DNA from: a virus
Length of the DNA stretch: 64,000 nucleotides
Strand: one strand, 5' to 3'
IMG/VR virus record: IMGVR_UViG_3300026488_000015
Coordinates: 64,001-128,000 of that record
How positions within the stretch are numbered: the first letter of the stretch is position 1; each line of letters begins with the position of its first letter. A model generated the notes under the pieces. It made no database searches. It had not been told where the DNA came from and saw nothing but the letters and a program-made list of their open reading frames with translations. Both the position numbers and the translations under genes were made by a program. Below, piece by piece: positions 14,126 through 56,236 of the stretch.

Positions 14126-14674
14126 TTATGAATCTAGTAAATCAGCGTATTTACCTATTTTCTTAACGGCTTTAGCGTGTTTTTCTTGTGCCTTCCAAGC
14201 CTTTTCTATAATAACTTTAATTTTAGAATTCATAGGTAGTTCACGAATTTCTTCTGTGATTTTAGCACCATTCTTTATAAGCATTCTTACTGTACCAGCT
14301 TCTGTATCATAACCTTTGAGGTGGTTACCTAATGGTGTATCTCCCCATTTATTTTCCTTAGCCCAATCCATTTTCTCATTTTTGATGACCTTAAAGAATT
14401 CTGGTTTGTCTTGTTGGAATAATGTGTGTAATACTGTTGATTGGTTGTCTTCATCTTCAGCATTTAGATTACAATCTCCACTCTTTACAAGATATTTGAA
14501 AATCTTAAACGAACCTTTATTTACTGTCGTTCTATCTAAAATATTCTGATAACCTAGATAAGCATCAAGATTTCCACCGGCTTTATGCCATTTCTTAAAT
14601 TTTGTTAAATCATCTTGTTTAATGATTTCTGATACGGTTTCTAATTCTTCGCCTTCTAATATTTCTTTTTTCAT
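14126..14674 (-). CDS. Ankyrin-repeat protein with C-terminal GKYADLL tag
   Basis: NAED...STVLH, ENKWGDTPL, VRMLIKNGA ankyrin signatures. Confidence 0.75.
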   Translation of the reverse strand: MKKEILEGEELETVSEIIKQDDLTKFKKWHKAGGNLDAYLGYQNILDRTTVNKGSFKIFKYLVKSGDCNLNAEDEDNQSTVLHTLFQQDKPEFFKVIKNEKMDWAKENKWGDTPLGNHLKGYDTEAGTVRMLIKNGAKITEEIRELPMNSKIKVIIEKAWKAQEKHAKAVKKIGKYADLLDS

Positions 14675-14704
14675 TGTTATCTCCGTTTATTGGTATTTAT
14701 CGTT

Positions 14705-16645
14705 CTAAAAATTGCTAGGTCCTTCAAACCCTTGACCTCCGCCACCTGCATCGTGGATATCGAATCCGTTAAAATTCGTTGGACTCTGTGGTTTGTCTTC
14801 AAGCTCATCATTAAACCCAAGGTCGAAAAAGGCACTCATTGATTCCTGATTCACATCCTCTGCCTTCTTTTGTGCTTCAATAAGAGAAATCATACCTTGG
14901 AAGTCATCAAAGTTTTTTATCTCCAAGAATACAGCAAATGTAAGAGCTAGAGCCATTGCCATATCATCCTTGTAACCTTCTTCTGCACTGAATGAACCAT
15001 TACTCTTTTCGATGAAAGAAAATAATTGATTCACGGTTAATTCGTCCTGAATGATAAGCTTACCCTCTTCAATGAATTTTTTCATAAACGATAGAATCTG
15101 CTTCTTTGTTCTCGTAGTGGTCCTAAAACCTTGTATTTTTTTATGCGATTCTTTGTATATATTTTCGTACTCGTAGTGATAGAATAGAGCATCCACGATA
15201 GTCTGGTCAAGATTATTCTCAACGACTACCAAAGCCTCATTGTAATACATACCAAGGTCGAATACTTTTGATGGAGCCGTTAGATACGATTCCTGAAGAT
15301 TCGCACAGGCTACTTGTTTAAAAGGAAGACCAGTCACATCGATTACCTGAATACCAGCATCATCGATACCATCTTTCTTAGGGTCCACTGTTAGGATATA
15401 ATGCTTACCCGGTTCGGGTTCATTAAAGATTCGTAGACCTTGAAAAATGTTATTAAATGTTATTTCGTCCTCTTCAACCCACGATAACGATTTTAGTACT
15501 GAACCAGTGATTAGTGTAGCAGAAGAACCTAAAAATTCCCCTCCAAAGTTTTGTTCGAAATACATTTGAGAAAATTTAGCTACTGTCTCGCTTCTGAAAT
15601 CATCATTTGTTTTAGGTGAACCATCTTTATTGAAACGGGGAACGCTTGTCCACGATGCTTCTGATAAAAGATACCCATTAATACCAGTATTGAAATTTAC
15701 TGTATATACATTGTCATTCAATGCAACAGAATCAATCTGCTTAGGCATACTGTCAAGGTTGTATAGCTCTTGTACTGTCATATTCTTAGCACCGATTTTG
15801 ATATTTTCATTCTCTTTGAAATCTTTAACGGCTTTCTTACGAGCACCTTTAACGAGAGCATAGAAATGATTCATACCACCAGCAGTACTCGATAGAATAG
15901 CTTGTGAATTTTGTAGAGCGGCCTGAGCAGGGAAAACTGAATCTGAAAATTCTTCCCATAACCCATTCTTAATAAAGGCAACCTCATCCACATAAAGGAT
16001 ATGAATAGAGTAACCACGAAATGAATCTGAAGATGTAGCTGATGTAAGAACTCTCGTTCCATTATCGAATTCGATTGATTGTTTATTCCATACAGTAACA
16101 CCTGATTGAAGCCAAATAGGTAATTCTAAAAAGATTTTCTTAATCTTATCTAGTACCTCAGTTGATAGTTTTTGTACATTGGCAGCGATACCAATATTGA
16201 TATTCGGGAAGAACATTGCTTTCCATAATAGATATATAGCCGTTGTAACGGTCTTGCCTGACTGTCTAGGAAAGAATAATACAACATCTTCACCAGTCAA
16301 ATAAGCATCTTCAGCATCTTCTTGATATTGTCTAGGTTCTGGTCTTGTGATACCAGTTCTATTAACAACTTTACAATAATGTTTTCGGAAGTATTTGAAG
16401 TCGTTCATACAATGATAAATTTCATTTTTGTGTACTTCGGTAAGTGCGAGTTTTGTGTCTGTTTTCTTCATAGTCTTAGCACCATTGTACGAAATCTTTG
16501 AACCAAAAGCATCCACATAGAATCCTTCATCGTTCGTTTTCATATCAATTTTCACTAAGATAGCATCTTTCTCTCTATCAGTAAGCTCAGAGCCTTTTTT
16601 ATCTGCTAGAGCGTCGAATAAACCCTTTTCAGTAGGTTCTTGCAT
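14705..16645 (-). CDS. Terminase large subunit (T4 gp17-like)
   Basis: PRQSGKT Walker A, LYVDEVAF Walker B, SST coupling motif, LTVD nuclease Asp, VVENN, GYKDDMAMAL; likely start MQEP at 16645. Confidence 0.95.
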   Translation of the reverse strand: MQEPTEKGLFDALADKKGSELTDREKDAILVKIDMKTNDEGFYVDAFGSKISYNGAKTMKKTDTKLALTEVHKNEIYHCMNDFKYFRKHYCKVVNRTGITRPEPRQYQEDAEDAYLTGEDVVLFFPRQSGKTVTTAIYLLWKAMFFPNINIGIAANVQKLSTEVLDKIKKIFLELPIWLQSGVTVWNKQSIEFDNGTRVLTSATSSDSFRGYSIHILYVDEVAFIKNGLWEEFSDSVFPAQAALQNSQAILSSTAGGMNHFYALVKGARKKAVKDFKENENIKIGAKNMTVQELYNLDSMPKQIDSVALNDNVYTVNFNTGINGYLLSEASWTSVPRFNKDGSPKTNDDFRSETVAKFSQMYFEQNFGGEFLGSSATLITGSVLKSLSWVEEDEITFNNIFQGLRIFNEPEPGKHYILTVDPKKDGIDDAGIQVIDVTGLPFKQVACANLQESYLTAPSKVFDLGMYYNEALVVVENNLDQTIVDALFYHYEYENIYKESHKKIQGFRTTTRTKKQILSFMKKFIEEGKLIIQDELTVNQLFSFIEKSNGSFSAEEGYKDDMAMALALTFAVFLEIKNFDDFQGMISLIEAQKKAEDVNQESMSAFFDLGFNDELEDKPQSPTNFNGFDIHDAGGGGQGFEGPSNF

Positions 16646-16655
16646 AGTATTTCCT

Positions 16656-17348
16656 TTAGTTGTTCCAGTAGTTAGCAAAATCTTTCTTTGCTTTATCTAA
16701 TTCTTTGTCTATCTTATCAAAAACTTTCATAACTTTTTTAAGCATAGATAGTTCCTTTTTTGAATCTTTAATCTCTGTTTGGTATTCTACTATTCTTTCT
16801 TTAGTTGTTATTATATAATCTTCGAGATAACCTATATTAGCTATTCTTATTTCGGTTCGTTTCTTTAGCTTCTGCTGGAATGCTTTTACTGGATATTCAG
16901 TATCGTTCCTTAAACCCGACCTTAGTTCTTCTATTTCTTCCTTGTATTTTTTAATATTTTTTAATTCAGTTTCAATACCACTATCTGCTGAGTGTTGGTG
17001 GTGCTCAGTCTTCTCTATATCAAGTACCACACTCTCTCTGTCTTCATAAGGTTTTGATTCTTTGGGTAACTTGAATTTTTTAAGTAGCTTCTTCTTTTCT
17101 TCTTTCAAAAAATCTCTTAGCTCCAGTGAGTGTAAATCGCCAGCATATAAAGTTTTGCTTTTACTACTACTGGAATAATCGCTCTTATTTCGAAAAGCAC
17201 TAGATATTTGTGTAGAATGTGCATCTTTAACTTTCTTCTGAGCTATCTTAGAGAAATCTTGCTTTGAAGAATCAACACCGTATCTAGCCATCATATCTTC
17301 TATTTCTTTCTTTGACATTTCTGTTATTAAATCTTTAAAATTCTTCAT
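16656..17348 (-). CDS. Putative internal virion protein (capsid-targeting-like N-terminus MKNFKDLITE)
   Basis: N-terminal motif like T4 IP leaders; coiled coil. Confidence 0.5.
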   Translation of the reverse strand: MKNFKDLITEMSKKEIEDMMARYGVDSSKQDFSKIAQKKVKDAHSTQISSAFRNKSDYSSSSKSKTLYAGDLHSLELRDFLKEEKKKLLKKFKLPKESKPYEDRESVVLDIEKTEHHQHSADSGIETELKNIKKYKEEIEELRSGLRNDTEYPVKAFQQKLKKRTEIRIANIGYLEDYIITTKERIVEYQTEIKDSKKELSMLKKVMKVFDKIDKELDKAKKDFANYWNN

Positions 17349-17593
17349 AGTAATCCCATCTCCTTTATTTGAAAAAGTTGTTTTCCTTGAGCCTTGACTA
17401 CTAATTGTTTACCATCATAAGAAAACATTATTTCATCGTTGTTCCAATAGAAAGTTGTTGAGCCTTTCTTCTCAATCTTACCGTGTTCGCCGTCAATCCA
17501 TCTAGTAAATGATTTAGCGAAATCATTTTTGTTTACTTTATAAGATAGACCTTCATTAATAATATTTTCAGCTATTTGTTTGAATGTTACCAT
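17345..17593 (-). CDS. Putative internal virion protein (MVTFKQIAE...INEG)
   Basis: N-terminal CTS-like motif. Confidence 0.45.
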   Translation of the reverse strand: MVTFKQIAENIINEGLSYKVNKNDFAKSFTRWIDGEHGKIEKKGSTTFYWNNDEIMFSYDGKQLVVKAQGKQLFQIKEMGLL

Positions 17594-17874
17594 TTGCCAT
17601 CGTTCTCTTCAGCTTCTTCAGCGTTAAAACCATAGTTCTTGATTTCTTCTCTGATAATGTCATCTATATTTCCGATTGTGGTGTTCACTTCATTAAGAGG
17701 TGAAGCAACTTCATTCTTTAGACCTAACATTTTCATAATCTCTCTAAGGTCTTCCAAATCTTCTTGTATATCAACCATTAAATCTTCGTAGTACTCAGCC
17801 ATTTCAAATTCTTCAACATCTTTGATGTCTTCATCACGAATATCTGCTTCAGCTATATTTTTAAAACTTCTCAT
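17587..17874 (-). CDS. Putative internal virion protein, acidic (MRSFKNIAE)
   Basis: N-terminal CTS-like motif; TATAAATA at 17898-17905. Confidence 0.45.
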   Translation of the reverse strand: MRSFKNIAEADIRDEDIKDVEEFEMAEYYEDLMVDIQEDLEDLREIMKMLGLKNEVASPLNEVNTTIGNIDDIIREEIKNYGFNAEEAEENDGKW

Positions 17875-17896
17875 ATTCTTCTCCGAATGTTTATTG

Positions 17897-18238: not shown

Positions 18239-18248
18239 TGCTGACTCC

Positions 18249-18266
18249 TTTATAAATATTTATAAA
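18249..18266. promoter_or_regulatory. Palindromic bidirectional T4-type late promoter
   Basis: TTTATAAATATTTATAAA is a perfect palindrome with TATAAATA on both strands, between divergent genes. Confidence 0.7.
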
Positions 18267-18280
18267 CTACGGAGAACACA

Positions 18281-18862
18281 ATGAAATTCACAGAATTTAT
18301 AGCTGAACAAGATTTAACAGAAGAAACAGAAGATAAAATATCGATAATGATGTATATGATAGAAAATGATTCTATTCTTACGGAGAGTGATTTAGAAAAT
18401 CTTACAGAAGCACAAGAACTATTAATCATTGAAGGTGTACACGATTGGTTAAAGAAAACGGGGTTAAAACTTCATAAGGGTAACGGTATTATCGACTATG
18501 TGATTCAGTTTAGTAAAGGTGCAGGAAAACTTATAATGGCAGCATTTAAGAATGATAAAGAAGAAGTGAAGAGAATTGCAGGTACATTAAAGAAAGAACA
18601 AGTGATTGACTTTTTGTTAAAATTAGATATGGCAACGATACATATTGTTACTGGAACTATACACCGTATAGATGCTTGGACAGGATGGGATTTATCAGCG
18701 AATCTAAATGCTCTTGCTAAGAAAGCAGAAAGTTCATTACATACATTTTATAAAGCTATGAAATCTGTAAAAGATTCGTTATTATCTGTGCTAGACGGCG
18801 ATAAACAAAAAAGAATGATGAAATTAGCAGATAAAATAGAAAATAATCTTCCAGATTTATAG
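18281..18862 (+). CDS. Putative internal virion protein (MKFTEFIAE)
   Basis: Near-canonical T4 capsid-targeting sequence, GGAG RBS, late promoter. Confidence 0.6.
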   Translation: MKFTEFIAEQDLTEETEDKISIMMYMIENDSILTESDLENLTEAQELLIIEGVHDWLKKTGLKLHKGNGIIDYVIQFSKGAGKLIMAAFKNDKEEVKRIAGTLKKEQVIDFLLKLDMATIHIVTGTIHRIDAWTGWDLSANLNALAKKAESSLHTFYKAMKSVKDSLLSVLDGDKQKRMMKLADKIENNLPDL

Positions 18863-18874
18863 GAAGATTATTTT
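18841..18874. terminator. Probable bidirectional intrinsic terminator
   Basis: AAATAATCTTCC-N9-GGAAGATTATTT inverted repeat between convergent genes. Confidence 0.55.
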
Positions 18875-18880
18875 ACTGAG

Positions 18881-19330
18881 CTAAGGCTTAACGAGTTCGA
18901 AATGCGGTAAATCATCAAAACTCTGGTCTCTAAATGTATCATCTCCATCCCAATCTAACCCAAAACGAACCTTGTGATTAATGGCACCTTGAGCATATAA
19001 ATCTTCTGATATTGCTTTAACCATACCCATCATCATATAAAATCTAGCATTGTCTTTAGTGTTATTACTAAAAGCATTTGAACCTTTCTTGTACGGCATA
19101 ATATCTACTGCGTAAGAAAAACCATCACCTTTATCTTGATGTTTAGATTTCTTTTTGATACCATCAAGCTTTGAACGGCCTTCGTTAAATAACATTTGTT
19201 GTCGTTCTTCAGTTCTAAGACCTTCGAGGACACTAAAATCGTAAAACTTAATGAGGACATTAAGAATTGCTTGAATGTCTTCGTGGCAAGTAACTAGTTG
19301 AGCTTCTGATTTTCTTCCAAAATTATACAT
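18881..19330 (-). CDS. Endolysin, M15 L-Ala-D-Glu peptidase (T5 endolysin-like)
   Basis: FG.KS..QL..CH.D, EGLRT.ERQ..L, SKH, AVDI, GLDW, DLPHFEL. Confidence 0.9.
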   Translation of the reverse strand: MYNFGRKSEAQLVTCHEDIQAILNVLIKFYDFSVLEGLRTEERQQMLFNEGRSKLDGIKKKSKHQDKGDGFSYAVDIMPYKKGSNAFSNNTKDNARFYMMMGMVKAISEDLYAQGAINHKVRFGLDWDGDDTFRDQSFDDLPHFELVKP

Positions 19331-19338
19331 ATTATCCT

Positions 19339-19929
19339 CTATTTTTTAAGTTTCTTTAAAAACTTTAATGATGGTAAGAATACCATTTCGATTGTCTTAC
19401 CTCTTTTAGAAGCAGATACAGTAAATTCTTCTGTTTCAAATTCTAATTCGTTATAATCTTTATCAAGAATTTTCTCTTTCATACCACCTTTCTCTAAAGC
19501 AGCAGCAAGTTTCATTAACCAACCTCTTGGTGGTTTAGATACATCGATGAAAATTTCTTTAGCATCATCTGTGTCCATCCAAATCGGGTCATCTTTTCTT
19601 ACTAATTTGTTTGTCTTACCAAAATTCTTATTGATTGAATCAACAACTTTCGCTACAGATTCAGCAGGTAAAGAACCTACATCAGCACCTTCTGTTAGTG
19701 AAACTGACCAAGACTTTGTGTATTTTTTAAATTTAGTAGGAATTTCAATTATACTATCATCAGCATAACTCCAATCTTTGTCTTTTAAACCATATTGCTT
19801 AAGACTATCTATGAAATAGAAAAAGTCATCATTTTCTTGTTCTTGTCCATCTGAATAAGTGCCAATTAAGTCACTCACATTTACTTTTAATGTTTTCTCT
19901 TCATTTACGAATTTACTAAATTTTATCAT
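19339..19929 (-). CDS. Putative internal virion protein (MIKFSKFVNE)
   Basis: CTS-like leader, internal LTEG site. Confidence 0.55.
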   Translation of the reverse strand: MIKFSKFVNEEKTLKVNVSDLIGTYSDGQEQENDDFFYFIDSLKQYGLKDKDWSYADDSIIEIPTKFKKYTKSWSVSLTEGADVGSLPAESVAKVVDSINKNFGKTNKLVRKDDPIWMDTDDAKEIFIDVSKPPRGWLMKLAAALEKGGMKEKILDKDYNELEFETEEFTVSASKRGKTIEMVFLPSLKFLKKLKK

Positions 19930-20327
19930 TATGATTCTCCATTTTCGTGTTTAAATATTCTAATGTATGCTTTACCATCATTTTTCTTAGCGAACTCATT
20001 ACTAGCACTAAAAGAAAATTCAGTACCATCAGCAGTGAAAGTACCTTCTACATCTTCTGCTTTAGAAGCACTGTTTTGTTTGAATTTATATTTCTTTAAG
20101 AAATTTGTAAGTTCAACTTTTTGTTCATACGAAAATTCACCTTCAACAAACTGCCATAAATTGATACTTACACCATCCATACTACGAACTTTATCTTGTA
20201 GTTTACCTTTAGGTTTCATTCCAATCTTTTTTAATGCTAGAACTATAACTGACTCAACAAAATCCCAATCATCATCTTTCTTTGGGCTAAAAAGACCTTC
20301 ATTTACGAATTTACTAAATTTTATCAT
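19929..20327 (-). CDS. Putative internal virion protein (MIKFSKFVNEG)
   Basis: Leader identical to its neighbour. Confidence 0.55.
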   Translation of the reverse strand: MIKFSKFVNEGLFSPKKDDDWDFVESVIVLALKKIGMKPKGKLQDKVRSMDGVSINLWQFVEGEFSYEQKVELTNFLKKYKFKQNSASKAEDVEGTFTADGTEFSFSASNEFAKKNDGKAYIRIFKHENGES

Positions 20328-20337
20328 TTTGTTTCTC

Positions 20338-20880
20338 CTATACCTTTATATTCCAAAAAGCAAAAACTAATTCTTTGCCGTTTGCATCTTTTGCCATTAT
20401 TTCTGTATCAGCGTGTTTCTTATCGAGTTTTTGTTTTTGAACTGTAACAACTGTATCTTTAATAAGTTTTACATTTGTTTCGTATTCAAAATCAATCTTT
20501 TCGCCTTTCGCTAAAGTTACTTTTGTTTCGCCTTTAGTAATACTCTTCATAATATCTCTTGTATCAAAGAAAATTCCATTAGGGTTACCAACCCAATCTC
20601 TATTATGTTTGGCTTCTAACTTTCTCCACTCACTCCAAGGCATATTGATTGTTTTACCTGATTTATAATCAAGTAGTTCAATAGTTTCTTTTCCTAGTTT
20701 CGTCTTCTTATATAGTACATCGGGTATTACTTTAGCACTTTCTGATTTACCAATAGTTACAGACTCGCCTACATCGTGTTCATCATAAATTGACATACTT
20801 CTATCTAATTTATTTTTGAACCAAGACCAAAGACCTTCGTTTATATTGCTTTCTGATACGAACTCGCTAAATTTTATCAT
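20338..20880 (-). CDS. Putative internal virion protein (MIKFSEFVSE..INEG)
   Basis: CTS-like leader. Confidence 0.55.
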   Translation of the reverse strand: MIKFSEFVSESNINEGLWSWFKNKLDRSMSIYDEHDVGESVTIGKSESAKVIPDVLYKKTKLGKETIELLDYKSGKTINMPWSEWRKLEAKHNRDWVGNPNGIFFDTRDIMKSITKGETKVTLAKGEKIDFEYETNVKLIKDTVVTVQKQKLDKKHADTEIMAKDANGKELVFAFWNIKV

Positions 20881-20898
20881 TTTGTTTCTCCTATTTAA

Positions 20899-21201
20899 TT
20901 ACTTTAATCTTACCCATATCATTTTAATATCTTCAACTTCTATATTAACGAACTTTTGGTCGTTCCCGTCCACAGCTTTAATGGGTTTCAAAGACCTGAT
21001 ATTTTTTTCGTCTCTTTCCGTAAATACTCTTGAGCTTTGGATGCTACCATCTTCATCTTTGTATTCTACTTCACCAAACCAGCCTGTCCCATCAGTAGTC
21101 ATTACTTCTTTAAAACCATAGTTGTCCTTAGTCACTAAGTACATTTCTGATGCTTCATTTATTGCCTCATTGTCGTGAGTATATTCGCTAAATTTTTTCA
21201 T
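20899..21201 (-). CDS. Putative internal virion protein (MKKFSEY...INEA)
   Basis: Start revised to ATG 21201 (GGAG RBS); CTS-like leader. Confidence 0.5.
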   Translation of the reverse strand: MKKFSEYTHDNEAINEASEMYLVTKDNYGFKEVMTTDGTGWFGEVEYKDEDGSIQSSRVFTERDEKNIRSLKPIKAVDGNDQKFVNIEVEDIKMIWVRLK

Positions 21202-21686
21202 TAGTCTTCTCCTTTTGTGTTTTTCCAATCTAAATTTAATTCTTCTGTGTATTCTTCTTGAACAAAGAAATCTATATCATCTAAATCTTCAATATCTAAA
21301 GTATTTATATCATAATCTTCTAAATCGTAGCTTAATGTGATATGAGGAATGTAATCAGGGAAATCATAAGTACCATCGTATTCTTTCATAAGATATTCGT
21401 GTCTTGCTTTTAAATCAGGAGAATCTAACTGCAGTACAAGTACTTTTGTGTCACCCTCAAAGATTTTAAATGAGTGTAGTGGTGTATCGTATTGAACTTT
21501 TCCAGCTGACTCATAGCCCTCAAGCTTTGAACGGCTAAACATAATAGTTGTATGGTAATCTGTATTGATATTAGGAATATCGTTATCTTTACAGAATTCC
21601 TCTAAACCCTTTTCAACATCTTTCGAGAAGCGACCACCAACATAGGTACCTTTCTTCTCTTCATTACAAAATTCTGAAAATCTCAT
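21201..21686 (-). CDS. acb1: 2H phosphoesterase, T4 gp57B / anti-CBASS Acb1-like
   Basis: GTYV, YHTTIMFSR and YDFPDYIPHITLSYD (two HxT motifs), EY.EEL..DW end, as in gp57B/Acb1. Confidence 0.8.
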   Translation of the reverse strand: MRFSEFCNEEKKGTYVGGRFSKDVEKGLEEFCKDNDIPNINTDYHTTIMFSRSKLEGYESAGKVQYDTPLHSFKIFEGDTKVLVLQLDSPDLKARHEYLMKEYDGTYDFPDYIPHITLSYDLEDYDINTLDIEDLDDIDFFVQEEYTEELNLDWKNTKGED

Positions 21687-22006
21687 CTATAACCCTTTTT
21701 ATTGATATATTCTATTGTAGTATCAGTTAATTTTGTTTTAATAGTATAGTACCAATTATCGTAAACTTTCGATTCAGAAGTCTTCTCTATTTCCCAATCA
21801 ATGTCGGGGAATTGTTTGCTTAATCTTCTCATATCTTTAATTACTACTTCAGACATATCGGTTCCATCACCTACAAGGTATTTCCCTTTTATGCTCCAAG
21901 AACCTACAATATCCGTAACTAGTCTTAAAATACTAGCAGTTTTATCATCTAATTTTGCTTTCTTACTAAATAATCCTTCCTTTATTAATTCGCTAAATGA
22001 TTTCAT
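21683..22006 (-). CDS. Putative internal virion protein (MKSFSELIKEG)
   Basis: CTS-like leader. Confidence 0.5.
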   Translation of the reverse strand: MKSFSELIKEGLFSKKAKLDDKTASILRLVTDIVGSWSIKGKYLVGDGTDMSEVVIKDMRRLSKQFPDIDWEIEKTSESKVYDNWYYTIKTKLTDTTIEYINKKGYR

Positions 22007-22668
22007 TAGTGTTTCTTTCCATTAATCGTTTTGATTTGCCAATCAGTAATAACTGGTTCTCTACCTTTAGTAAATCTTTGAGCAAGATAAGGGTCAATTT
22101 TAGCATCATAATCGATTTTAAACATTTTAGAACCGTTATCAAGTGTAATGTCAATGATAGTACCACCTAGCTCCATACTTCTGTATGTGAACATAACATA
22201 GTCGCCTACTTTAGGTTTTGTTGATTCAGTTACTTCAACTTTTTCTTCTTCCTTTTCAGGTTTCTCTTCATCTTTTACTTCCTTCTTCTCAGGTTTCTCT
22301 TCTTTTTTCTTAGGCTTTTCTTTCTTCTCAGGTTTCTCTTCAGGAACTTCTTCCTCTTCTGGCTCAGGCTCTAATTCAGCATCTTCACCTTCTTCAGTCT
22401 CTACATCAGCAATATTATCAGCTATGAACTGTCCCATTTCTGCACTTAAATCGTGTAGTTTTGCTTCCATATCTAAGATGTTAGCTCTAAGAGGATTATC
22501 CTCTCTCATAACTCCTAATACACCTAAAAGTGATACATTAGCTATACTCGCTTGAATTTCTTTCATCGCTGCTAGAGCCTCGTAACGAACTGCGTTTTCT
22601 GTTACTTCTGTTTCTGGAATGATTTCTACTTTTGATTTAACACCAAGATGGTCTTTGAATGATTTCAT
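22006..22668 (-). CDS. Putative prohead core/internal protein with E/K/P-rich linker
   Basis: MKSFKDHL leader, EKPEKK repeats, late promoter at 22691-22698. Confidence 0.45.
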   Translation of the reverse strand: MKSFKDHLGVKSKVEIIPETEVTENAVRYEALAAMKEIQASIANVSLLGVLGVMREDNPLRANILDMEAKLHDLSAEMGQFIADNIADVETEEGEDAELEPEPEEEEVPEEKPEKKEKPKKKEEKPEKKEVKDEEKPEKEEEKVEVTESTKPKVGDYVMFTYRSMELGGTIIDITLDNGSKMFKIDYDAKIDPYLAQRFTKGREPVITDWQIKTINGKKH

Positions 22669-22693
22669 ATGGTTCTCCTAACTTTATTGATAT

Positions 22694-35841: not shown

Positions 35842-36069
35842 CTAACTAAACCTAACTAAACCAACTAAGTTGATTAAACTGAATACTACATTCATTATAA
35901 GCAACTGTCTATTATCATTATTATAAGCATAAATTGACCATAATATAGAACTCGTGATGAATAATGTATAGCACAACATAAACAAGTCTAAATTTAACGC
36001 CATTAACATTGCTGCTGTAACACCCGTTGTAGTTGCTGAATTTGTAATAAATGTTTCTGATATTCTCAT
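35842..36069 (-). CDS. Small three-helix membrane protein
   Basis: Hydrophobic helices; early promoter upstream. Confidence 0.55.
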   Translation of the reverse strand: MRISETFITNSATTTGVTAAMLMALNLDLFMLCYTLFITSSILWSIYAYNNDNRQLLIMNVVFSLINLVGLVRFS

Positions 36070-36245
36070 AATCTTTCCTTCTTCTCTTTATATACAGTAT
36101 TATAACATAACATAGCTTAAAGGCTACTTAAATTTGGAGAAATAAAAAGAATTTTGAAATTCTTTTAGTAGAACTTGGTTTTTACTAAAGTTTTACCTCT
36201 AACTTTTATAGATACTACTAAGATACAAAACAAACAAGTATCTAA

Positions 36246-36282
36246 CCTCAAGGAAGAGGATGTTTTACACAACGGAGGTGTA
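36246..36282 (+). promoter_or_regulatory. Putative CsrA-binding 5' leader: two hairpins with ANGGA loops, the second covering the RBS
   Basis: CCTC-AAGGAA-GAGG (36246-36259) and TACAC-AACGGAG-GTGTA (36266-36282), directly before the flagellin ATG. Confidence 0.65.
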
Positions 36283-36284
36283 TT

Positions 36285-37109
36285 ATGGGATTTACAATCA
36301 ACACAAACAATAGCGCAAACTTCGCACTATTATATGGTAGACAAACACAACAAAAAATAGATAGTTCTTTAGAAAAACTATCAACTGGTCTTAGAATTAA
36401 CAGAGCAGCAGATGATGCAGCAGGAATGGCTATTGCTAATCAGTTAAGAAGCCAATCACAAGGTTTAATTCAAGGTAACAAAAATGCACAAGATGCTATT
36501 GGTCTTGTTAAAATAGCAGATGGCGCAATGGATGAGTATCAAAAAATTCTCGTGACTGCTAGAGATAAATCAGTTCAGGCAGCAAGTGATACGAATTCAC
36601 CTGAAGCAAGAGCAGTACTCGAAGAGGAAGTTAAGCAATTACTTCAACAAGCAGATGATATTGCCACTACGACATCATTCAATGGTATTAATCTTTTAGA
36701 TGGTACATTTACTAGCAAGAAATTTCAAGTAGGTTCAGAATCTGGCCAAACTATTAGTATGAGTATAGCTAATACTGATATTGCTTCTCAAAATATTGCT
36801 GACGCTGATATTGATTTAACTACTCAAGCAGGTGCTGATGCAGCAATCGTTTCATTGGATGCAGCGATAAAAAGTATTGATGCCGTTAGAAGTGGAATAG
36901 GTTCGACTCAAAATGCACTAGAAAGTAGAGTCCGTGTTAATGAGGCAACTGCCGCAAATGTTATGGCCGCAGAGAGCGCGATTCGTGAAGTTGATTATGC
37001 TGCAGAACAAACAGCATTAAATACAAACACAATCAAGTTACAAGCTAATACATTCGCTTTAGGTAAAGCATTAGAGAACCAACAAATGATTCTTAGTCTG
37101 CTTAGATAG
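36285..37109 (+). CDS. Flagellin (short; D0/D1 only)
   Basis: MGFTINTN, SLEKLSTGLRINRAADDAAGMAIA, NAQDAIGLVKIADGAMDE, TSFNGINLLDG, FQVG, RSGIGSTQN.LE, AESAIREVDYAAE, ILSLLR. Confidence 0.95.
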   Translation: MGFTINTNNSANFALLYGRQTQQKIDSSLEKLSTGLRINRAADDAAGMAIANQLRSQSQGLIQGNKNAQDAIGLVKIADGAMDEYQKILVTARDKSVQAASDTNSPEARAVLEEEVKQLLQQADDIATTTSFNGINLLDGTFTSKKFQVGSESGQTISMSIANTDIASQNIADADIDLTTQAGADAAIVSLDAAIKSIDAVRSGIGSTQNALESRVRVNEATAANVMAAESAIREVDYAAEQTALNTNTIKLQANTFALGKALENQQMILSLLR

Positions 37110-41219: not shown

Positions 41220-41813
41220 TTATGAACTATAACTATCTGGCCAACCACCATTAGAAACAGACTTAGTAGAACCTGGTGATAATGTGATATATCCAGGCAT
41301 CTTAGTTTTAAGTAAAATACCTTCTTCGTTCCCTTCTTTAAAAAGAGCAGTACAAGCTTTTACATTTTTTACAAGAGCAGGAGAATTAATATCTATAAGT
41401 TTTTTGATGTTATTAGAGATTTCATACGAACCACTACCTGCTTTTTTAGGTGTAACTACTATTGAGATATATTCTATCCAAGTAGTTGTTTTCTTTCCAG
41501 CATAAACTGAACCATAAACATCATAAGTAATAAACATTGTAACGCCATTTTCAATTATTTCTAATTTAGCTGTACCATATCTGTTATTAACAAACTCTCC
41601 ACTTGTATGATATTGCATATTATCTTTAGTTTCAATGCTAACCAGTTTTGGTTCATATCCTGCTTTCTTTAGTGTTTCAAATACTTTAGATTTTTTATAT
41701 ACTGTCTTTATTTTCTTTTCAACTGCATCCATAGTCGGGAGCATACTATGTTGCTCACCTGATGGGTTTACCTCTGTTGTAGCTTCATTCACAAATTTAC
41801 TAAATTTTACCAT
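41220..41813 (-). CDS. Putative internal virion protein (MVKFSKFVNEA), isolated late gene
   Basis: CTS-like leader nearly identical to those at 19.9 and 20.3 kb; TATAAATA at 41833-41840. Confidence 0.55.
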   Translation of the reverse strand: MVKFSKFVNEATTEVNPSGEQHSMLPTMDAVEKKIKTVYKKSKVFETLKKAGYEPKLVSIETKDNMQYHTSGEFVNNRYGTAKLEIIENGVTMFITYDVYGSVYAGKKTTTWIEYISIVVTPKKAGSGSYEISNNIKKLIDINSPALVKNVKACTALFKEGNEEGILLKTKMPGYITLSPGSTKSVSNGGWPDSYSS

Positions 41814-46786: not shown

Positions 46787-46795
46787 ATTTTTCCT

Positions 46796-47305: not shown

Positions 47306-47360
47306 AATTTCTTTCCTTCTTTATATGTAATATTATAACATATCTTTACTTAAAGCTCTA

Positions 47361-47870
47361 TTAAAGAAGGTCTGCGTATTTACCTAGTTTTCGTTTTAGT
47401 TTTCTGTTATTGAATTCATCAAATGCTTCTAATAGGTTTTCATCGTAATCTAAGGCGTTCTTTTTGAGTTCTTTTTGTACTCGTTTGTCGCCGAACATTA
47501 TTTGGACTGTTTTTCTGTATTCATCATATTCTTTACCTTTTCTTGATGTCATTGACCAAGCCATTCTAAGCCCTCTACATCTACCGCTAATAGGGTTTAC
47601 TCTCTTATCAGTTAATAAAAGTTTCACTATTTCCGAATAACCATTACTAGCCGACATCTGAAGTGATTCATTACCATTATCCGATGGGTCTACTCTCTTA
47701 TCTTTCATTAAAAGTTTTACTGTCCCAAGATAACCGTGCGTACTAGCTTCTCTGATTAACCAGTTAGCATTTTCAGTTGGGTCTGCTTTTAGTCCAAGTT
47801 GTTTTACTATATAAGATTCAAAATCTTTCTCGTTTCTTGTGTATTTGTAAGCATCTACGAAACTAGCCAT
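47361..47870 (-). CDS. Ankyrin-repeat protein with GKYADLL tag
   Basis: ASTHGYLGTVKLLMKDKRVDPS and ASNGYSEIVKLLLTDKRVNP repeats. Confidence 0.8.
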   Translation of the reverse strand: MASFVDAYKYTRNEKDFESYIVKQLGLKADPTENANWLIREASTHGYLGTVKLLMKDKRVDPSDNGNESLQMSASNGYSEIVKLLLTDKRVNPISGRCRGLRMAWSMTSRKGKEYDEYRKTVQIMFGDKRVQKELKKNALDYDENLLEAFDEFNNRKLKRKLGKYADLL

Positions 47871-48193
47871 TAGTCATCTCCGAGTAAATCGGCATATTTA
47901 CCAATCTTTTTGTTCTTGTATTTTCTTATTCTATTTCTGATTTCGGGAACTGCATCATCTAAGAACTTATCGATATTATCTGGTAATTTGATTTCATTAT
48001 CGATGAACATCTGAACCATCTTAGTGTCTTTGTTCTTGATAGCCATACCAAAAGGTGAATCGTTGAAATTATTTGTTAATTCGACCCATTCAGGAACTTT
48101 AATCTTTAATATTTTCTTGGCTTTATCGTAATCACTTGATAGCACAACATCGATTAATATCTGATTTAGTGCTTTCTCTTCTATTGTCCCCAT
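47870..48193 (-). CDS. Ankyrin-like protein with GKYADLL tag
   Basis: DSPFGMAIKNKDTKMVQMFIDN. Confidence 0.65.
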   Translation of the reverse strand: MGTIEEKALNQILIDVVLSSDYDKAKKILKIKVPEWVELTNNFNDSPFGMAIKNKDTKMVQMFIDNEIKLPDNIDKFLDDAVPEIRNRIRKYKNKKIGKYADLLGDD

Positions 48194-49158
48194 TAGTCAT
48201 CTCCTAGTAAGTCTGCATACTTACCTAATTTTTTATTATTCGATTTCTTTGCTATCAGTTTTATTGCTTTATCGTACCATTTCCACTTCGGTTTAGCTAG
48301 TAACATTTCAAGAACTCTATCATCTTTCATAAGTATTTTAGCTATCCCTGGTGTTACTGAATTCATATCATCAACGATACCACTTGGTACTTGAAATTTA
48401 TCATCAGCTAATAATATTCTAACCATTTCTAAATTCCCAGCCATTGCTGCAGTACCTAGAGCACCATAATCTAAATTAGAAATATTTACATCCACATCGT
48501 ATAACCACTTAGCGATTTTCTCTCTTTTGTATTCGAGTGCATTAGCAAACCAATAATTTTCATCCTTGAATAAGCTATAACCACCTCTTATAGCAGTTGT
48601 CATTAATTTCAATAGTACATCATCATCTTTCTCTGTTTTAAATTTCATAATGTACATTTCGCCCTCTTCATCTAAAATGATATAAGGATATTCCACTGAT
48701 TCGACCACTATTCTATCCTGCTTTTGTCTCGATTTTGTGAAGTAAAATTCCGGGTCTTTCTCTCTACCTTGGATAAATGTGATGATGGTTATGTAACCAT
48801 TTTCTTTGTTGATTATCATCATATCGTAACGAGCTTTAGAATTTTTGTAAACGATTATTGTTTTGTTGCCTGGTACAAGCTCACCAGAATCGAAAACTTT
48901 TTTAATCTTCTTTAGAATTAATTCATCTTTGATACCGTGGTCACGAGCTTTCTTCTCACCGTCACGCTTTTGAGTGCTATGAGAAGATTTATAGACATCT
49001 ATATTATCTACTGTCCCGACTTTTAAAGAGTCGCTAGGTCGTTTTGCTTTGATTTTTTGGGGAGTCGGGGTAGGTTGCTCAGTCTTATCAGATGCTTTCT
49101 TCTTTATTTTAAGTGCTTCTGTTATTGAGTCGTTAAGTATTTTATTGAATGTTTGCAT
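48193..49158 (-). CDS. Two-domain protein: unknown N-terminal domain plus ankyrin repeats, GKYADLL tag
   Basis: ALGTAAMAGNLEMVRILL; late promoter at 49180-49187. Confidence 0.7.
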   Translation of the reverse strand: MQTFNKILNDSITEALKIKKKASDKTEQPTPTPQKIKAKRPSDSLKVGTVDNIDVYKSSHSTQKRDGEKKARDHGIKDELILKKIKKVFDSGELVPGNKTIIVYKNSKARYDMMIINKENGYITIITFIQGREKDPEFYFTKSRQKQDRIVVESVEYPYIILDEEGEMYIMKFKTEKDDDVLLKLMTTAIRGGYSLFKDENYWFANALEYKREKIAKWLYDVDVNISNLDYGALGTAAMAGNLEMVRILLADDKFQVPSGIVDDMNSVTPGIAKILMKDDRVLEMLLAKPKWKWYDKAIKLIAKKSNNKKLGKYADLLGDD

Positions 49159-50010
49159 AAGTACTCTCGTGTTTGAGAGTATTTATATTAAGCTTGTTTA
49201 ATGTTATCGTTATCTAAATCATAGAGAGAGGCTCTTTCCCATTTCTCATCATAAATATAAATAGTGTTTAAACCATTCTCTATTTTCCATTCTAACATCG
49301 GTGCATCATCTGAATCTAGTGCTAATGCTGTATAGGCTACTTTGTCTCCAGATTCTTTATCAGTGCAAACTGTGTAAACATCCAGTTCTTCTAATTCTAC
49401 TGTACCAAATTCTAATTCTTGAAGTAAATCATTTACTTCCTGGGGTATGATGATATTCATAATAAATCCTTTGTTTCTTTATATGTAATATTATAACATA
49501 GTGTTTCTTAAACTCTACTTAACATATTTTAAATACTCTGCTCGTGTATCAAATGTTTTGCCTGATTTTGTCTGAATAAGAATATGATTATCTGAAGCAT
49601 CGTAATACTTATCATCATTTGAATTATATGTAGCATTTTTACCATATTGGGTGACTTCAGCATCCATCGCCATACATATTTTACATACATTATTCGACAT
49701 TGCTACCCAAGCACTCGATACAACAAAGCAATCTTCATCTGATTTACCACATACCTCACAAGGTCTTCCTGTAGGTTCCATTATATCTCTCCTCTATATT
49801 TTAATTCATTAAATAATTCCAACCAAGGCGTGTACATAAATGCTTCTGGATTCTCTTTGATAAGGATTATCATTACAGAACCAATATCTTTATTATTTCT
49901 TAGAATAATTTTATTATCATCCATATAACCATCGAGAATAGTATTTTCAACATTTACAGAACCAATAAATTCTCCAGTCTCTCTCGGTGGATACATTCTC
50001 TTAGTGCCAA

Positions 50011-51550: not shown

Positions 51551-54500
51551 ATGATAACTAGAAGTTTTAACAAAATTGATTTAGATTTAGCAGTAGTAGA
51601 AGCAGAGATTGCTGGTGTTGTAATCTCAACAAACAAAATTACATCGGTGCAGAGTAATTCAACTCTTACTTTGGAAGGTAATGGTACTGGAAAAATAACA
51701 CTCAACGATGATACAAAAGTAAACGGGAGCCTGAGCACTTCTAAGGATGTCGTATTCCATAGTGACTTTGCTTTAATAGCTGATGATTCTTCTGGAGAAT
51801 TTTCTAATAGAAGTGGTACAAACATAGACCATATTTGGCACAATGATACTACCAATTCTTGGAATTTTGTTTCTGATGGTACTTATAGAAAAGATGGAAT
51901 TTCAGGTTCAAGTACTTTAAGAGCTCAACACTTAGCTCTTGGTTCACATCTTACTGTAAATGGAAATACAGTTCTTGGTAATGCTAATACCGATTCAACA
52001 ACGGCTAGAGGTACAGTAACATTATCTGATGCAGGAAAATTGACTAATATCAAGGGAACATTAAATGTGGACCAAGCAGTTTCTTTCGATTCAACATTAA
52101 ATGTTGCTAGTACCACGACTTTAAATTCAACTCTTACTGTAAATGGTAGCACGACTTTAAAATCAAATCTTACTGTAAATGGGAATACAGTTCTTGGTAA
52201 TGCTAATACAGATACTTCAGTAATTCGTGGAACTCTTACATTATCTGATTTAGACAAACTTACTACTATCAAAGGTTCTTTAAGAATTAATCAAGACCTT
52301 GTTATCGATAAAGCACTAAATGTTACGAACGATTTAGTTGTTGGTGATTTCAATGATTCAAACTCTAATATTACAGTTCTAGCTGGGGAAACGAAAATAG
52401 CACAAATATCTGCATACGGGTCTAGTCAAGGTACTGGAATTGTATATGTAGGACAAAGCAGTTCTCACGGTGGTGGTATCGTTTATAATGGCGATGACAA
52501 CCCTAATTTACCTTTCAGTACTGATAGTATATCAATGTTTAGAAGAAGTTCAGGTGTAGATTACGAGATTATACACGCAAGTCACGGTTCAAGTCGAGTT
52601 TTATTCAATGATAGCATTACTATTGAAGGTACATCTGATTCATCAAGCACTATTACTGGTTCATTCCAGACTAAAGGTGGTGTAGGAATTGCTAAGAAGT
52701 TATATGTTGGTACTTCTGTTTATGCACCGACTTATTACGATTTAAACAATACTGGATATTATGGTAACTTTGCTAGTACAAGTAGAATGAATTTACTAAA
52801 TCTTACGACTCTTAATGTTTATGGTATTACTACTCTTGGTGATGCAGTTACTGATTCGACTAGAATTCGTGGTACTGTTACTATAAGTGATAATACGAAA
52901 TTAACTAAGATTGAAGGTAAACTTACAGTCGATGAAGCAACTATTTTAAGTTCTACTCTTAATGTTAATGGTAATACTACTCTTGGTAATGCAGTTACTG
53001 ATTCAACGACTATTCGTGGTACTGTTACTATCGGTGATGATACGAAAAATACTAGAATTGGTGGTACACTTTCAGTTGATGAAACTGCTACATTCTCTGG
53101 TATCATAAATGCTAACGCTGGAATCAAACAAGATAATTTCTCTATTCTTAATGGTTCTGATACTTGGTTAAGAACTTCTGGGAATACTGGTTGGTATTCT
53201 GCCACTCACGGTGGTGGTATGTATATGACTGATACTACCTGGGTTCAGACTTATGCAGATAAAGGTCTATCAGGTAGAGTACTAAGAAGTACTGTTGCAC
53301 AAGGAACAGCACCTCTTGTTGTTACTAGTACGACTAAAGTTGCCAAACTAAATGTCGATTATCTTGATGGTCAAGATATTTCATATTATAGAAATGCTAC
53401 AAACTTGAATGCAGGTACAATATCTGATGCAAGATTACCAAATATTATCACTTCTGATATAAAAGGTATCAAGTATGTGGATAGTAGTAATGAAATGACA
53501 TTAGCACAAGGCTTCGTTGGTGGTAGATTGTACTTAAATTATAGAGGAGCAACTTCTGCTATTACAGAATTATACATAGCTAATGGTCGTGGTGCTACTA
53601 CAACTAATGTTATAGCAAGACAATACACATCTAATGTTGCACAAGGAACAGCACCTCTTATTGTTGCTAGTTCAACTAAAGTAACGAACTTGAATGCTGA
53701 TTATCTTGATGGTCAGACTTTGACATCTGCAGGGACAGCAAATACAGTTGTCGGTCGTGATGGTTCGGGCGATATAAATGCTAGATTATTCAAGAGTACT
53801 TACGGTACAACATCATCATTAGCAGCAACTGCAGATATTTGTTTCAGAAATAGCACTTCAGATAATTATTTAAGATTCGTAGACCACGCAGGAATAATTT
53901 CTTGGATTGGTAAAGTAAACGATTCACAAAAACTTGATAATCTCGATTCTACACAATTTTTAAGAAGCGATACAGCAGATACATACACTTCATTAAGTGG
54001 GGGTAGACTCACAGCAACTGGTACGGGTAACAACTATACTAATGGTGGAATAGAAGTGCGTTCATCGGGTAGTGCTATACCAACAATCGGTTTTCATAAA
54101 CCAGGTGCTTTCGCTGGAGAACTACAACTAAGAGCTAACAACGAATTTTACTTCCGTAATAATGGCGATACTGGAAATGCAAATGTAACTGCAGAGGTGT
54201 TTAGAGGTAAAGCAACAAGTGCTAACTACGCCGATGTCGCAGAAAATTATCTTTCTGATTCAGTACAAGTTCCAGGTACTGTAATGGGTATAGGAGGAGA
54301 AAACGAGATTGCAGTATGGACTGAAGGAATGCCTCTAGCAGGTGTTGTAAGTACTAATCCAGCTCTTATTATGAATAACGAAGATTCTATTAAGGATAAT
54401 GAATTGTATCTTGAAATAGCACTTAAAGGAAAGATTCCTTGTTTCATAGAAGGAGAAGCTAAGAAAGGACAATATTTAGTCCCTTCAAGTAATGGTAAAG

Positions 54501-54589
54501 CAAAAGTTTCTACTACATACAATCCAGAATTTAATATAGGTGTATGCATAGAAGATTCCGTAAACGGGACTGTAATGGTTAAAGTCTAA
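51551..54589 (+). CDS. Tail fibre / receptor-binding protein with C-terminal intramolecular chaperone-like (peptidase G2-type) domain
   Basis: G/T/S/N-rich beta repeats (LTVNGNTVLGNANTD, VAQGTAPL..S.TKV..LN.DYLDG), C-terminal YADVAENY...GVVSTNPA...ALKGKIPC; TATAAATA at 51517-51524. Confidence 0.8.
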   Translation: MITRSFNKIDLDLAVVEAEIAGVVISTNKITSVQSNSTLTLEGNGTGKITLNDDTKVNGSLSTSKDVVFHSDFALIADDSSGEFSNRSGTNIDHIWHNDTTNSWNFVSDGTYRKDGISGSSTLRAQHLALGSHLTVNGNTVLGNANTDSTTARGTVTLSDAGKLTNIKGTLNVDQAVSFDSTLNVASTTTLNSTLTVNGSTTLKSNLTVNGNTVLGNANTDTSVIRGTLTLSDLDKLTTIKGSLRINQDLVIDKALNVTNDLVVGDFNDSNSNITVLAGETKIAQISAYGSSQGTGIVYVGQSSSHGGGIVYNGDDNPNLPFSTDSISMFRRSSGVDYEIIHASHGSSRVLFNDSITIEGTSDSSSTITGSFQTKGGVGIAKKLYVGTSVYAPTYYDLNNTGYYGNFASTSRMNLLNLTTLNVYGITTLGDAVTDSTRIRGTVTISDNTKLTKIEGKLTVDEATILSSTLNVNGNTTLGNAVTDSTTIRGTVTIGDDTKNTRIGGTLSVDETATFSGIINANAGIKQDNFSILNGSDTWLRTSGNTGWYSATHGGGMYMTDTTWVQTYADKGLSGRVLRSTVAQGTAPLVVTSTTKVAKLNVDYLDGQDISYYRNATNLNAGTISDARLPNIITSDIKGIKYVDSSNEMTLAQGFVGGRLYLNYRGATSAITELYIANGRGATTTNVIARQYTSNVAQGTAPLIVASSTKVTNLNADYLDGQTLTSAGTANTVVGRDGSGDINARLFKSTYGTTSSLAATADICFRNSTSDNYLRFVDHAGIISWIGKVNDSQKLDNLDSTQFLRSDTADTYTSLSGGRLTATGTGNNYTNGGIEVRSSGSAIPTIGFHKPGAFAGELQLRANNEFYFRNNGDTGNANVTAEVFRGKATSANYADVAENYLSDSVQVPGTVMGIGGENEIAVWTEGMPLAGVVSTNPALIMNNEDSIKDNELYLEIALKGKIPCFIEGEAKKGQYLVPSSNGKAKVSTTYNPEFNIGVCIEDSVNGTVMVKV

Positions 54590-55611
54590 GTAAGAAAACT
54601 TAGCACTACTTTATTCATAAACTCTCTATCTGATTTCTCAGGTAGAGTAGTCCTCAACATAAGTTCATCAACTCTATCTAAAGTATCTCGTACTTCATCA
54701 AGAGCATCATCTACATCGACACGGCCTTCTTTGACATCTTTCAATCTCTCTGCTTTTGTGAGAGGAAATTTAAGAAAGTTGGTGGTAAGAAGTTCTTCAA
54801 CCTCTACAGCTACTCTAAGAGCGTGAGATAAAGCTTTAAAGTCTGTTTTTGATTCAGTCTTAGCAACAGTTTTTGTTCTGTTACCAAAACCTTCATATAA
54901 TTTCTTAACTCTCTCAAGCATATACAAGAAAGTAACATTTCCTTCGTACATTTTACCAAGGACAGAAAAATACTCACATTCAGTATGTTCACCAAGACCA
55001 CGAGAGTTAGGTGCCATAACGAACTTAACATATTTGTATCCTCTTGTAATAACTTTCAAATCATCAAATCTATCACTAAGTTTTGTATCAGGTGAACCTT
55101 GTGCCCAGCCATCTAGTGCTTTTACAAGTTTATCTAGCTCTGCATATCTATCACCTTTGACACCGAATTTCTTCGTTTGTCCGACAGCATATCCAACAAA
55201 TTTCTTCATATTTCTATTTTGGAATTTTGTGTGATTATCTTTCATTACTTTAGTAAATTCAGGTACTTCGTAAACGACTGTATCCTTTCTAAACATAGAG
55301 TAAAGTAAATCTACTGCACCCGTTTCAGAACCTTCGAGTAAATCCATAAATTTGTATGGAGAATATCCATCTAAATCTACATCATCAGCACCATTCTTTT
55401 CTTTAGTGTCTTTACCAACTTTAAGAAATTCTACATCTTTTTTCAATAGAACATCTTCTTTACTTGGAGCGAACAAAAATTTATAATCAGTATCAGAATT
55501 AACATTATCTGTACCGTATAATTTTGAACCACTAAGAGTCACATATAGAACCCTAACATTGTGTTTTTCTTCTAGTCCTCTGAGGACCTCTTTTAGTTTT
55601 TCGTTTGTCAT
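54586..55611 (-). CDS. Pol-beta superfamily nucleotidyltransferase (T4 NrdC.11-like)
   Basis: GSKLYGTDNVNSDTDYK (GS..DxD), FVGYA, DFKALSHALR, LP...D; start likely MTNEK at 55611. Confidence 0.85.
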   Translation of the reverse strand: MTNEKLKEVLRGLEEKHNVRVLYVTLSGSKLYGTDNVNSDTDYKFLFAPSKEDVLLKKDVEFLKVGKDTKEKNGADDVDLDGYSPYKFMDLLEGSETGAVDLLYSMFRKDTVVYEVPEFTKVMKDNHTKFQNRNMKKFVGYAVGQTKKFGVKGDRYAELDKLVKALDGWAQGSPDTKLSDRFDDLKVITRGYKYVKFVMAPNSRGLGEHTECEYFSVLGKMYEGNVTFLYMLERVKKLYEGFGNRTKTVAKTESKTDFKALSHALRVAVEVEELLTTNFLKFPLTKAERLKDVKEGRVDVDDALDEVRDTLDRVDELMLRTTLPEKSDREFMNKVVLSFLT

Positions 55612-55720
55612 TTTATGACCTTTATTTTGATTTTCCACCAATCAATTTACGGTATTAATAACCGAATAAAGTATCTCTCTTTATATGTAATATTATAACA
55701 TAAGTAACCTTAAAACCTTC

Positions 55721-56236
55721 TTAATCTAGTAAATCAGCATATTTACCTAGTTTCTTTAATTTCACGCCTTCTAAAAACTCTTTGATGAATAGCTTGAAGT
55801 TATTGGAATCCCATCCACTGTATTGCATAGCTTGTTCTAATATTTTTGGGTTGCTTAGAGCTATTTCAGCTGTCTTACGGAATTTGTCGTGGTGAAGGTT
55901 AGCAATAGCGTGTCTATTCAATTCGTACATCAAATCATATTTACCAGTGAATTCTTTTATTCTTGGTAAAATAATCTCTAATGCCTCATAATTACCTAGT
56001 TCAATTGCTGTTTTTATAATCTGATTGAAATTTTGTGAGTACTCATAACCTTTAAGATTACTGACCAGTTTAACTGCCTTTACATTATTCGTTTGGATTA
56101 TTCTGCGTATAACCTCATCTTCATAAGGTATTTTGTTTTTTAAAAGTCCCTTGATTTCTTTATCAAGATTCCTTCCACCTGGTCCCATTGTATCTAAATC
56201 CCACCAATCTGTTACTTTTTCGTTCATATCCAACAC
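55721..56236 (-). CDS. Degenerate ankyrin-like protein with GKYADLL tag
   Basis: IIKTAIELGNYEALEIIL; late promoter at 56249-56256. Confidence 0.6.
   Translation of the reverse strand: MLDMNEKVTDWWDLDTMGPGGRNLDKEIKGLLKNKIPYEDEVIRRIIQTNNVKAVKLVSNLKGYEYSQNFNQIIKTAIELGNYEALEIILPRIKEFTGKYDLMYELNRHAIANLHHDKFRKTAEIALSNPKILEQAMQYSGWDSNNFKLFIKEFLEGVKLKKLGKYADLLD

Follow-up and report, generated by a model that had tools for sequence, protein, structure and literature searches.

Constant address peptides on hypervariable viral proteins have been described: bacteriophage T4 loads anti-restriction proteins into its head, and poxviruses hijack ubiquitin ligases. In the case of T4, the capsid-targeting sequence (CTS) is a 10-residue peptide found on poorly conserved internal proteins engaged in an arms race (PMC9026906). 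The poxvirus ankyrin family combines variable N-terminal repeats with a constant C-terminal module which plugs into one host machine (PMC4353913, PMC9414399). Some jumbo phages also carry ClpX and ClpP genes, the roles of which are unproven (PMC7824862, PMC6102473). We analyzed a 64,000-nucleotide stretch of viral DNA (hereafter the window; positions 64,001 to 128,000 of the IMG/VR record IMGVR_UViG_3300026488_000015), in which five genes encode otherwise divergent proteins ending with a nine-residue tail that contains GKYADLL. This tail is probably a short, portable docking or address peptide mounted on a library of variable binders, and a nine-residue C-terminal label on a set of ankyrin proteins appears to represent a third solution of this kind.

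In a six-frame translation of the source record (146,525 bp), the string GKYADLL occurred exactly five times, always on the minus strand and followed by 0-3 residues and a stop codon, and the four-residue core KYAD was found at the same five sites only. The five tails are thus located where the initial annotation had placed them. The first gene (14126..14674), flanked by the large terminase gene on one side and the neck/tail-sheath-stabiliser genes on the other, encodes a 182-aa ankyrin protein ending with KKIGKYADLLDS (Pfam Ank_2, E = 8.8e-5; tail core K-I-G-K-Y-A-D-L-L at 14135..14161). Three other genes form an array. Array gene 1 (48193..49158) encodes a 321-aa protein ending with KKLGKYADLLGDD, composed of a conserved N-domain (residues 41-135 approximately) and an ankyrin-like half (residues 167-321); array gene 2 (47870..48193) encodes a 107-aa protein ending with KKIGKYADLLGDD, for which the Pfam ankyrin match was not significant; array gene 3 (47361..47870) encodes a 169-aa ankyrin protein whose last residues, RKLGKYADLL, are found right at the stop codon (Ank_2, 29.4 bits, above the gathering score). 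The product of the fifth gene (55721..56227), 168 aa long and non-ankyrin according to Pfam, ends with KKLGKYADLLD. The tail of this last protein is as first described, but its start had to be revised: translation begins at the ATG at 56227, which is preceded by GAGGTG, and the GTG at 56236 sits within this ribosome-binding site. The description of the tagged proteins as mostly ankyrins, although true overall, is weak in the window, since three of the five match a Pfam ankyrin family and a single one passes the gathering score.

The source record (33% GC, completeness around 68%) contains the window, and a polymerase, a portal and a capsid gene are all missing from its 146,525 bp. Identity of its terminase to the terminases of T4-like phages of Vibrio and Campylobacter was 31-38%, and matches to PHROGs included the clamp loader, gp46/47, a gp55-like late sigma factor, NrdAB and the tail-sheath stabiliser. 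Searching with the back-translated pattern K-x-G-K-Y-A-D-L-L revealed the tail on two further contigs, G001 (105 kb) and G002 (80 kb), from a single metagenome. A polymerase and a helicase are present on G001, three gp23-like genes, a portal gene and gp21 on G002, and a terminase was found in neither of them. Just 8 of the 231 record proteins had paralogue-type matches in G001 or G002, and in the protein database the proteins of the window and of both contigs all mapped to one 331,651-bp contig, to be compared with 331,177 bp for the record, G001 and G002 added together. The possibility that G001 and G002 are independent phages conserving the tail was rejected on account of these complementary core genes, few paralogue-type matches and the shared contig. 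The record, G001 and G002 are non-overlapping and complementary, and are therefore three parts of one uncultured T4-like jumbo phage of about 332 kb. Ankyrins are nearly absent from phages, being present in 14 of 50,697 phage records, none of them T4-like.

In the three genome pieces, a relaxed version of the motif occurred 30 times over the six frames, 26 times no more than four residues from a stop codon. The 26 tagged open reading frames (ORFs) end with ADLL (22 cases), AALL (two), ASLL (one) or ASLM (one), which leads to the consensus K-[LI]-G-K-Y-A-[DAS]-L-[LM]. Five copies at three loci, as originally counted, therefore hold for the window and the record, but not as a total, the whole phage carrying 26. 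Seven further tagged proteins were obtained from other datasets (P0010, P0011, P0012, P0021, P0023, P0026 and P0002), with bodies 45-91% identical to the jumbo-phage copies. Among them, P0011 and P0023 are orthologues of the 107-aa protein (91% and 48% identical, respectively) and have retained the tail, while the KVGKFADLL of P0002 is the sole sequence drift in the seven relatives. Beyond this lineage, contigs of IMG/VR with a single match were judged to be chance occurrences and yielded no genuine tail, and the G003/L004 match was rejected as an out-of-frame coincidence. The Phe variant K-x-G-K-F-A-D-L-L gave chance matches only in IMG/VR, located 7-12 residues from the stop codon. In Joint Genome Institute (JGI) metagenomes and GTDB genomes (185,579 species genomes), the back-translated pattern returned internal matches, tiny ORFs and variant endings, and no credible C-terminal tail. 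A HMMER profile search of 1.84 billion protein representatives recovered this lineage alone, plus one internal low-complexity match. A homologue search with the 168-aa protein produced a self-match only, and a literature search for the string GKYADLL found no paper. The search of genome and databases recommended in the initial annotation thus yielded 26 tagged genes in the phage and seven relatives, and the tail is confined to one jumbo-phage lineage.

The tail is conserved as a peptide. The 27-nt DNA segments encoding it comprised 24 distinct sequences among 26 copies, with a mean of 3.9 of the nine third positions differing between pairs. Codon choice was split for Lys (AAA/AAG, 12:11), Tyr (TAT/TAC, 7:16) and Asp (GAT/GAC, 11:12), and three Ala codons and both Leu codon families were used. 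Synonymous sites vary freely, near saturation, indicating that selection acts on the peptide, as had been proposed, and not on a DNA or RNA element; a DNA-level repeat or recombination element was ruled out on the same grounds. More than half of the tails (15/26) carry one to three extra residues, commonly G-D-D or G-D-I. These extensions (GDD, GDI, GVL, GES and similar) always derive from GGAG...TAATG, the stretch in which the next tandem gene has its ribosome-binding site and its start codon overlaps the stop. A GDD example is found in the array at 47871..47881 on the minus strand, where GGAGATGAC followed by TAATG provides the Shine-Dalgarno sequence and the overlapping stop/start of the next gene, and likewise at 48194-48204. 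Up to three additional residues are tolerated, and the tail does not depend on a free carboxylate in a fixed position.

The tagged genes are under late-promoter control. The T4-type late promoter TATAAATA shows a strand bias in the record (29 occurrences on the coding strand against 8 on the other) and precedes genes for tail-fibre, baseplate and tube proteins by 17-29 nt. Of the 11 tagged transcription units, 9 are headed by this promoter, as against 54 of 466 other genes (Fisher p = 3e-7). Several of the tagged units are late cassettes located on the opposite strand amid early genes. In the window, TATAAATA is found on the minus strand 21 nt upstream of the ATG of array gene 1 (49180..49187) and 21 nt before the ATG of the 168-aa protein gene (56249..56256), where it overlaps the stop codon of the upstream gene (...CAC TTA TTC TTA TAA ATA), an early gene of the PH-tail class. 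The box found 19 nt before the ATG of the 182-aa protein gene (14694..14701, minus strand), within a late structural operon, is a late-promoter-like variant, GATAAATA; as it is not an exact TATAAATA, the evidence for a promoter is weaker at this position. Both the promoters predicted at these three sites, which lie 19-21 nt before the ATG, and their contrast with the early PHxLL class were confirmed, TATAAATA being associated with none of 33 PH-tail genes.

The PH-tail proteins are a separate, early class of C-terminal tag. At least 33 small proteins distributed over the three contigs end with P-[HD]-x-hydrophobic-hydrophobic (PHLFL, PHLLL, PDLLL). In the window they are encoded between 22694 and 62297, for instance at 56252-56503 for a protein ending with APHLFL.

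The bodies that precede the GKYADLL tail are highly divergent. In an alignment of the tagged proteins (22-26 sequences), mean column identity was 16% and the only invariant columns were those of the tail. A Pfam scan of 22 tagged proteins gave 15 matches to Ank_2 (best E = 1.1e-41), the remaining seven being without ankyrin signal. These values bear out the earlier description of divergent, mostly ankyrin bodies under a constant tail, and support the architecture then proposed of a variable binder plus a constant docking tail. When the proteins were aligned by their C-termini, the last repeat was found at varying distances from the tail. P0002 combines the N-domain of the 321-aa protein with a C-terminal half that is 36% identical to the body of the 168-aa protein (E = 4e-26), and the tail is still present, while P0003 contains the N-domain of the 321-aa protein and lacks the tail. 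The tail is therefore modular and portable between bodies. The tagged proteins are also small and basic, with a median isoelectric point of 8.6 versus 5.2 for other proteins, and the 12 residues that precede the tail contain 25% Lys versus 9% in the proteome.

An AlphaFold2 (AF2) model of the 182-aa protein (predicted local distance difference test score, pLDDT, 83.6) showed ankyrin helix pairs followed by a long helix spanning residues 150-181 and including the tail (tail pLDDT around 81). The body of this model matched designed ankyrin repeat proteins (DARPins) with template-modelling (TM) scores of 0.6-0.7. The model of the 321-aa protein was poor (pLDDT 58.5), residues 167-321 being ankyrin-like (Z around 8). 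Its N-domain, shared with P0002 and P0003, displays the conserved residues S-x-H-S/T-x-x-x-R ... R-D-x-x-I. Weak Atlas neighbours of this domain in the low-confidence model included C-terminal parts of toxin-bearing haemagglutinin-repeat proteins (TM 0.51), and the domain may correspond to an enzymatic or toxin-like module.

That the invariant columns are restricted to the tail, that the tail DNAs are distinct, that non-ankyrin bodies and the shuffled P0002 carry the tail and that orthologues with 48-91% identity keep it all argue for a docking peptide. The tagged proteins constitute a late-expressed, fast-diverging family encoded by 26 genes or more; most are ankyrin-repeat binders, and they are marked by the tail 0-3 residues from the C-terminus and by a Lys-rich helix before it. 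Their variable bodies would bind diverse targets, while the constant tail would join every member to one invariant reader. Among specific readings we tentatively place first, ahead of docking on ClpX, the use of the tail as an address tag for incorporation into the virion. The tagged proteins would enter the assembling virion through their tails and, once packaged, would be delivered to the next host cell as pre-made effectors, so that the tail would be the C-terminal counterpart of the N-terminal CTS on the hypervariable internal proteins of T4. This proposal is based on the late control of the genes, the small size and basic character of the proteins, the copy present within the structural module beside the terminase, and the T4 precedent. 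The internal proteins of T4 are likewise basic.

As in the case of the CTS of IPI-III and Alt, a constant peptide of about ten residues is found on small variable proteins encoded by scattered genes, and is portable to unrelated bodies (PMC9026906). However, the CTS is N-terminal and gp21 cuts after [LI]-x-E, whereas the jumbo-phage tail is C-terminal, differs in sequence and is not accompanied by an enriched cleavage motif. Several observations weigh against packaging into the virion. A gp21-type [LI]-x-E within the 25 residues upstream of the tail was not enriched (8/26 versus a background of 32%, p = 1.0). About 18 proteins of the phage already carry a T4-like, N-terminal motif of CTS type, MK-x-FSEF-x-E, and a second packaging address is therefore not obviously required. 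ClpX, which is known to read short terminal peptides, is encoded by the phage with its zinc-binding domain, together with ClpP, and in the AF2 model the tail terminates a long helix and does not sit on a floppy linker. The cargo-loading peptides of encapsulins are C-terminal, about 10 residues long, found on diverse cargo, and bind inside an HK97-fold shell. The tail resembles them as a short C-terminal peptide on diverse proteins; there is no sequence similarity and encapsulins are not phages. Naming the reader would uncover one of two things, a new way of packaging proteins in tailed phages or naturally occurring targeted degradation in bacteria. Once its reader is identified, the tail could potentially serve as a ready-made portable tag for engineering, and the family is a clean example on which the sharing of C-terminal tags in huge phages can be tested.

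Somewhat less probable than the virion address is another partner or surface: a host protein, the membrane, the tail then being an amphipathic targeting helix, or the tails of fellow members in hetero-oligomers. If helical, as in the AF2 model, the tail would align [LI], [YF], A and [LM] (as [LI]-x-x-[YF]-A-x-x-[LM]) in one hydrophobic stripe flanked by the invariant Lys residues, whereas the tolerant D/A/S position would point the other way; the preceding 25% Lys segment also counts in favour of this reading. However, a membrane helix needs physicochemical character only, and not an invariant G, K, Y and A over 26 old paralogues. Mimicry of a host C-terminal docking peptide found no support, as no protein with a credible tail ending is encoded by the 185,579 prokaryotic species genomes and the profile search recovered only this lineage.

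Rather unlikely in our opinion, but ranked second among the specific readings, is a protease-adaptor handle, by which the tail would dock the ankyrins on the phage ClpX, for example on its N-terminal zinc-binding domain, and bound targets would be passed to the phage ClpXP. The phage ClpX is genuine (G002 35859-37109, L183:1198-2448; AAA_2, 3e-29; zf-C4_ClpX, 32 bits, above the cutoff; GYVG pore loop and IGY loop), and is accompanied by ClpP (G000 143251-143892; PF00574, 3.5e-50). The T4-type prohead protease gp21 is encoded by a distinct gene, indicating that ClpP is not the head protease. The tolerance for 0-3 extra residues is that expected of a docking motif, and a binder fused to a ClpX-docking peptide suffices to degrade an untagged target, as in CLIPPERs (PMC12373786). 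The tagged proteins share with these degraders and with SspB-type adaptors the association of a binding module with a short C-terminal peptide, but the ankyrin bodies are not of SspB fold. The timing does not match either: the tagged genes are late, but clpX and clpP map to early/middle regions and are devoid of a late promoter. The tail does not look like the XB motif of SspB, which ends with LRVVK. The early PH-tail class is just as good a candidate for a ClpX ligand, and has more members. Moreover, ClpX and ClpP genes are not rare in jumbo phages and their role is unproven (PMC7824862).

By analogy, the tagged ankyrins might act as natural adaptors resembling proteolysis-targeting chimeras (PROTACs), each capturing a different host protein (a defence protein, for example) or an early phage protein and sending it to destruction by the phage ClpXP through the tail, a scenario that we consider no less doubtful than docking on ClpX itself. 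If true, the poxvirus ankyrin/F-box system would for the first time have an equivalent in a bacterial virus. The analogy with that system drawn in the initial annotation holds for the architecture, a viral multigene family of variable ankyrins with a constant C-terminal part, but not for class membership: ankyrin families only were detected in the Pfam scans of the 22 tagged proteins, with no PRANC or F-box. PRANC is a folded module of about 40-50 residues which binds Skp1 of a ubiquitin ligase absent from bacteria, whereas the phage element is a nine-residue peptide expressed late.

It is improbable that the tail has no separate function and is simply the C-terminal cap that a single family of ankyrin paralogues has conserved, the alternative which the initial annotation had named as fatal to its proposal. 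Most bodies are indeed ankyrins, and in the AF2 model the helix coming after the last repeat ends with the tail. However, the tail occurs on the seven of 22 bodies without ankyrin signal, at a variable distance from the last repeat, and it moves with shuffled domains in P0002; the capping-helix reading is largely excluded on these grounds. In addition, the tail is 100% conserved while the repeats are down to 16-30% identity, and its invariant Gly is unfavourable to a helix.

A C-terminal degron, making the tagged proteins themselves short-lived substrates of ClpXP or another protease, is less probable still. The location of the motif near the C-terminus, its basic and hydrophobic composition and the presence of ClpXP in the phage are compatible with this idea. 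The tails do not, however, present non-polar residues at a free C-terminus as an ssrA-like degron does, 15 of 26 bearing one to three further residues that often end with Asp-Asp, and these acidic additions speak against a degron engaged by the pore. The E. coli ssrA tag is no longer recognised by ClpX once its LAA end is replaced with LDD. There is also no obvious rationale for the production of 26 late proteins destined for destruction.

Finally, a sliding-clamp docking tail comparable to the shared C-termini of T4 gp43, gp33 and gp55 is hardly credible: the likeness to the clamp-binding tails of RB69 and T4 (near the C-terminus, basic residues and after them aromatic, acidic and hydrophobic ones) is superficial, and the proteins expected to share a clamp tail carry an acidic-Trp tail instead, the family-B DNA polymerase ending with IDEDEW, the gp55-like late sigma factor with ISEEW and the gp33-sized 98-aa protein with TEDEW, and none of them with GKYADLL.

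This acidic-Trp end ([DE][DE]W) was also observed on a SLOG-domain protein and on three more G001 proteins, the loci being G000 14621-14992, 15001-15297 and 18767-19930 (beyond the window) and G001 88220-91144. It is a candidate docking tail for the replisome or the clamp. A T4 gp45 clamp was not detected using PF09116; a 189-aa ORF adjoining the clamp loader gene is a clamp candidate.

The N-terminal class mentioned above comprises about 18 proteins starting with MK-x-FSEF-[VI]-x-E, near the T4 capsid-targeting sequence. They are encoded in the window at 18281-18862 (+), 19339-22668 (-) and 41220-41813 (-), and elsewhere in the phage, the array at 19339-22668 having a late promoter at its head. 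These are probably T4-type internal head proteins.

The 157-aa protein encoded at 56506-56979, whose gene is the second one upstream of a tagged gene, gave spurious Kelch-repeat matches only in a sequence search of the PDB. In the window, a 274-aa ORF with flagellin-like termini (MGFTINTN... / ...QQMILSLLR) was found at 36285-37109 (+), on the strand opposite to its neighbours. On G002, a gp23-like paralogue (47358-47990, +) lies directly upstream of a tagged 78-aa gene (48214-48450), and has a Cys-rich end, C-D-C-G-C-K-G-D-E-S-K-C-K-C-E-D-S-C-S-C.

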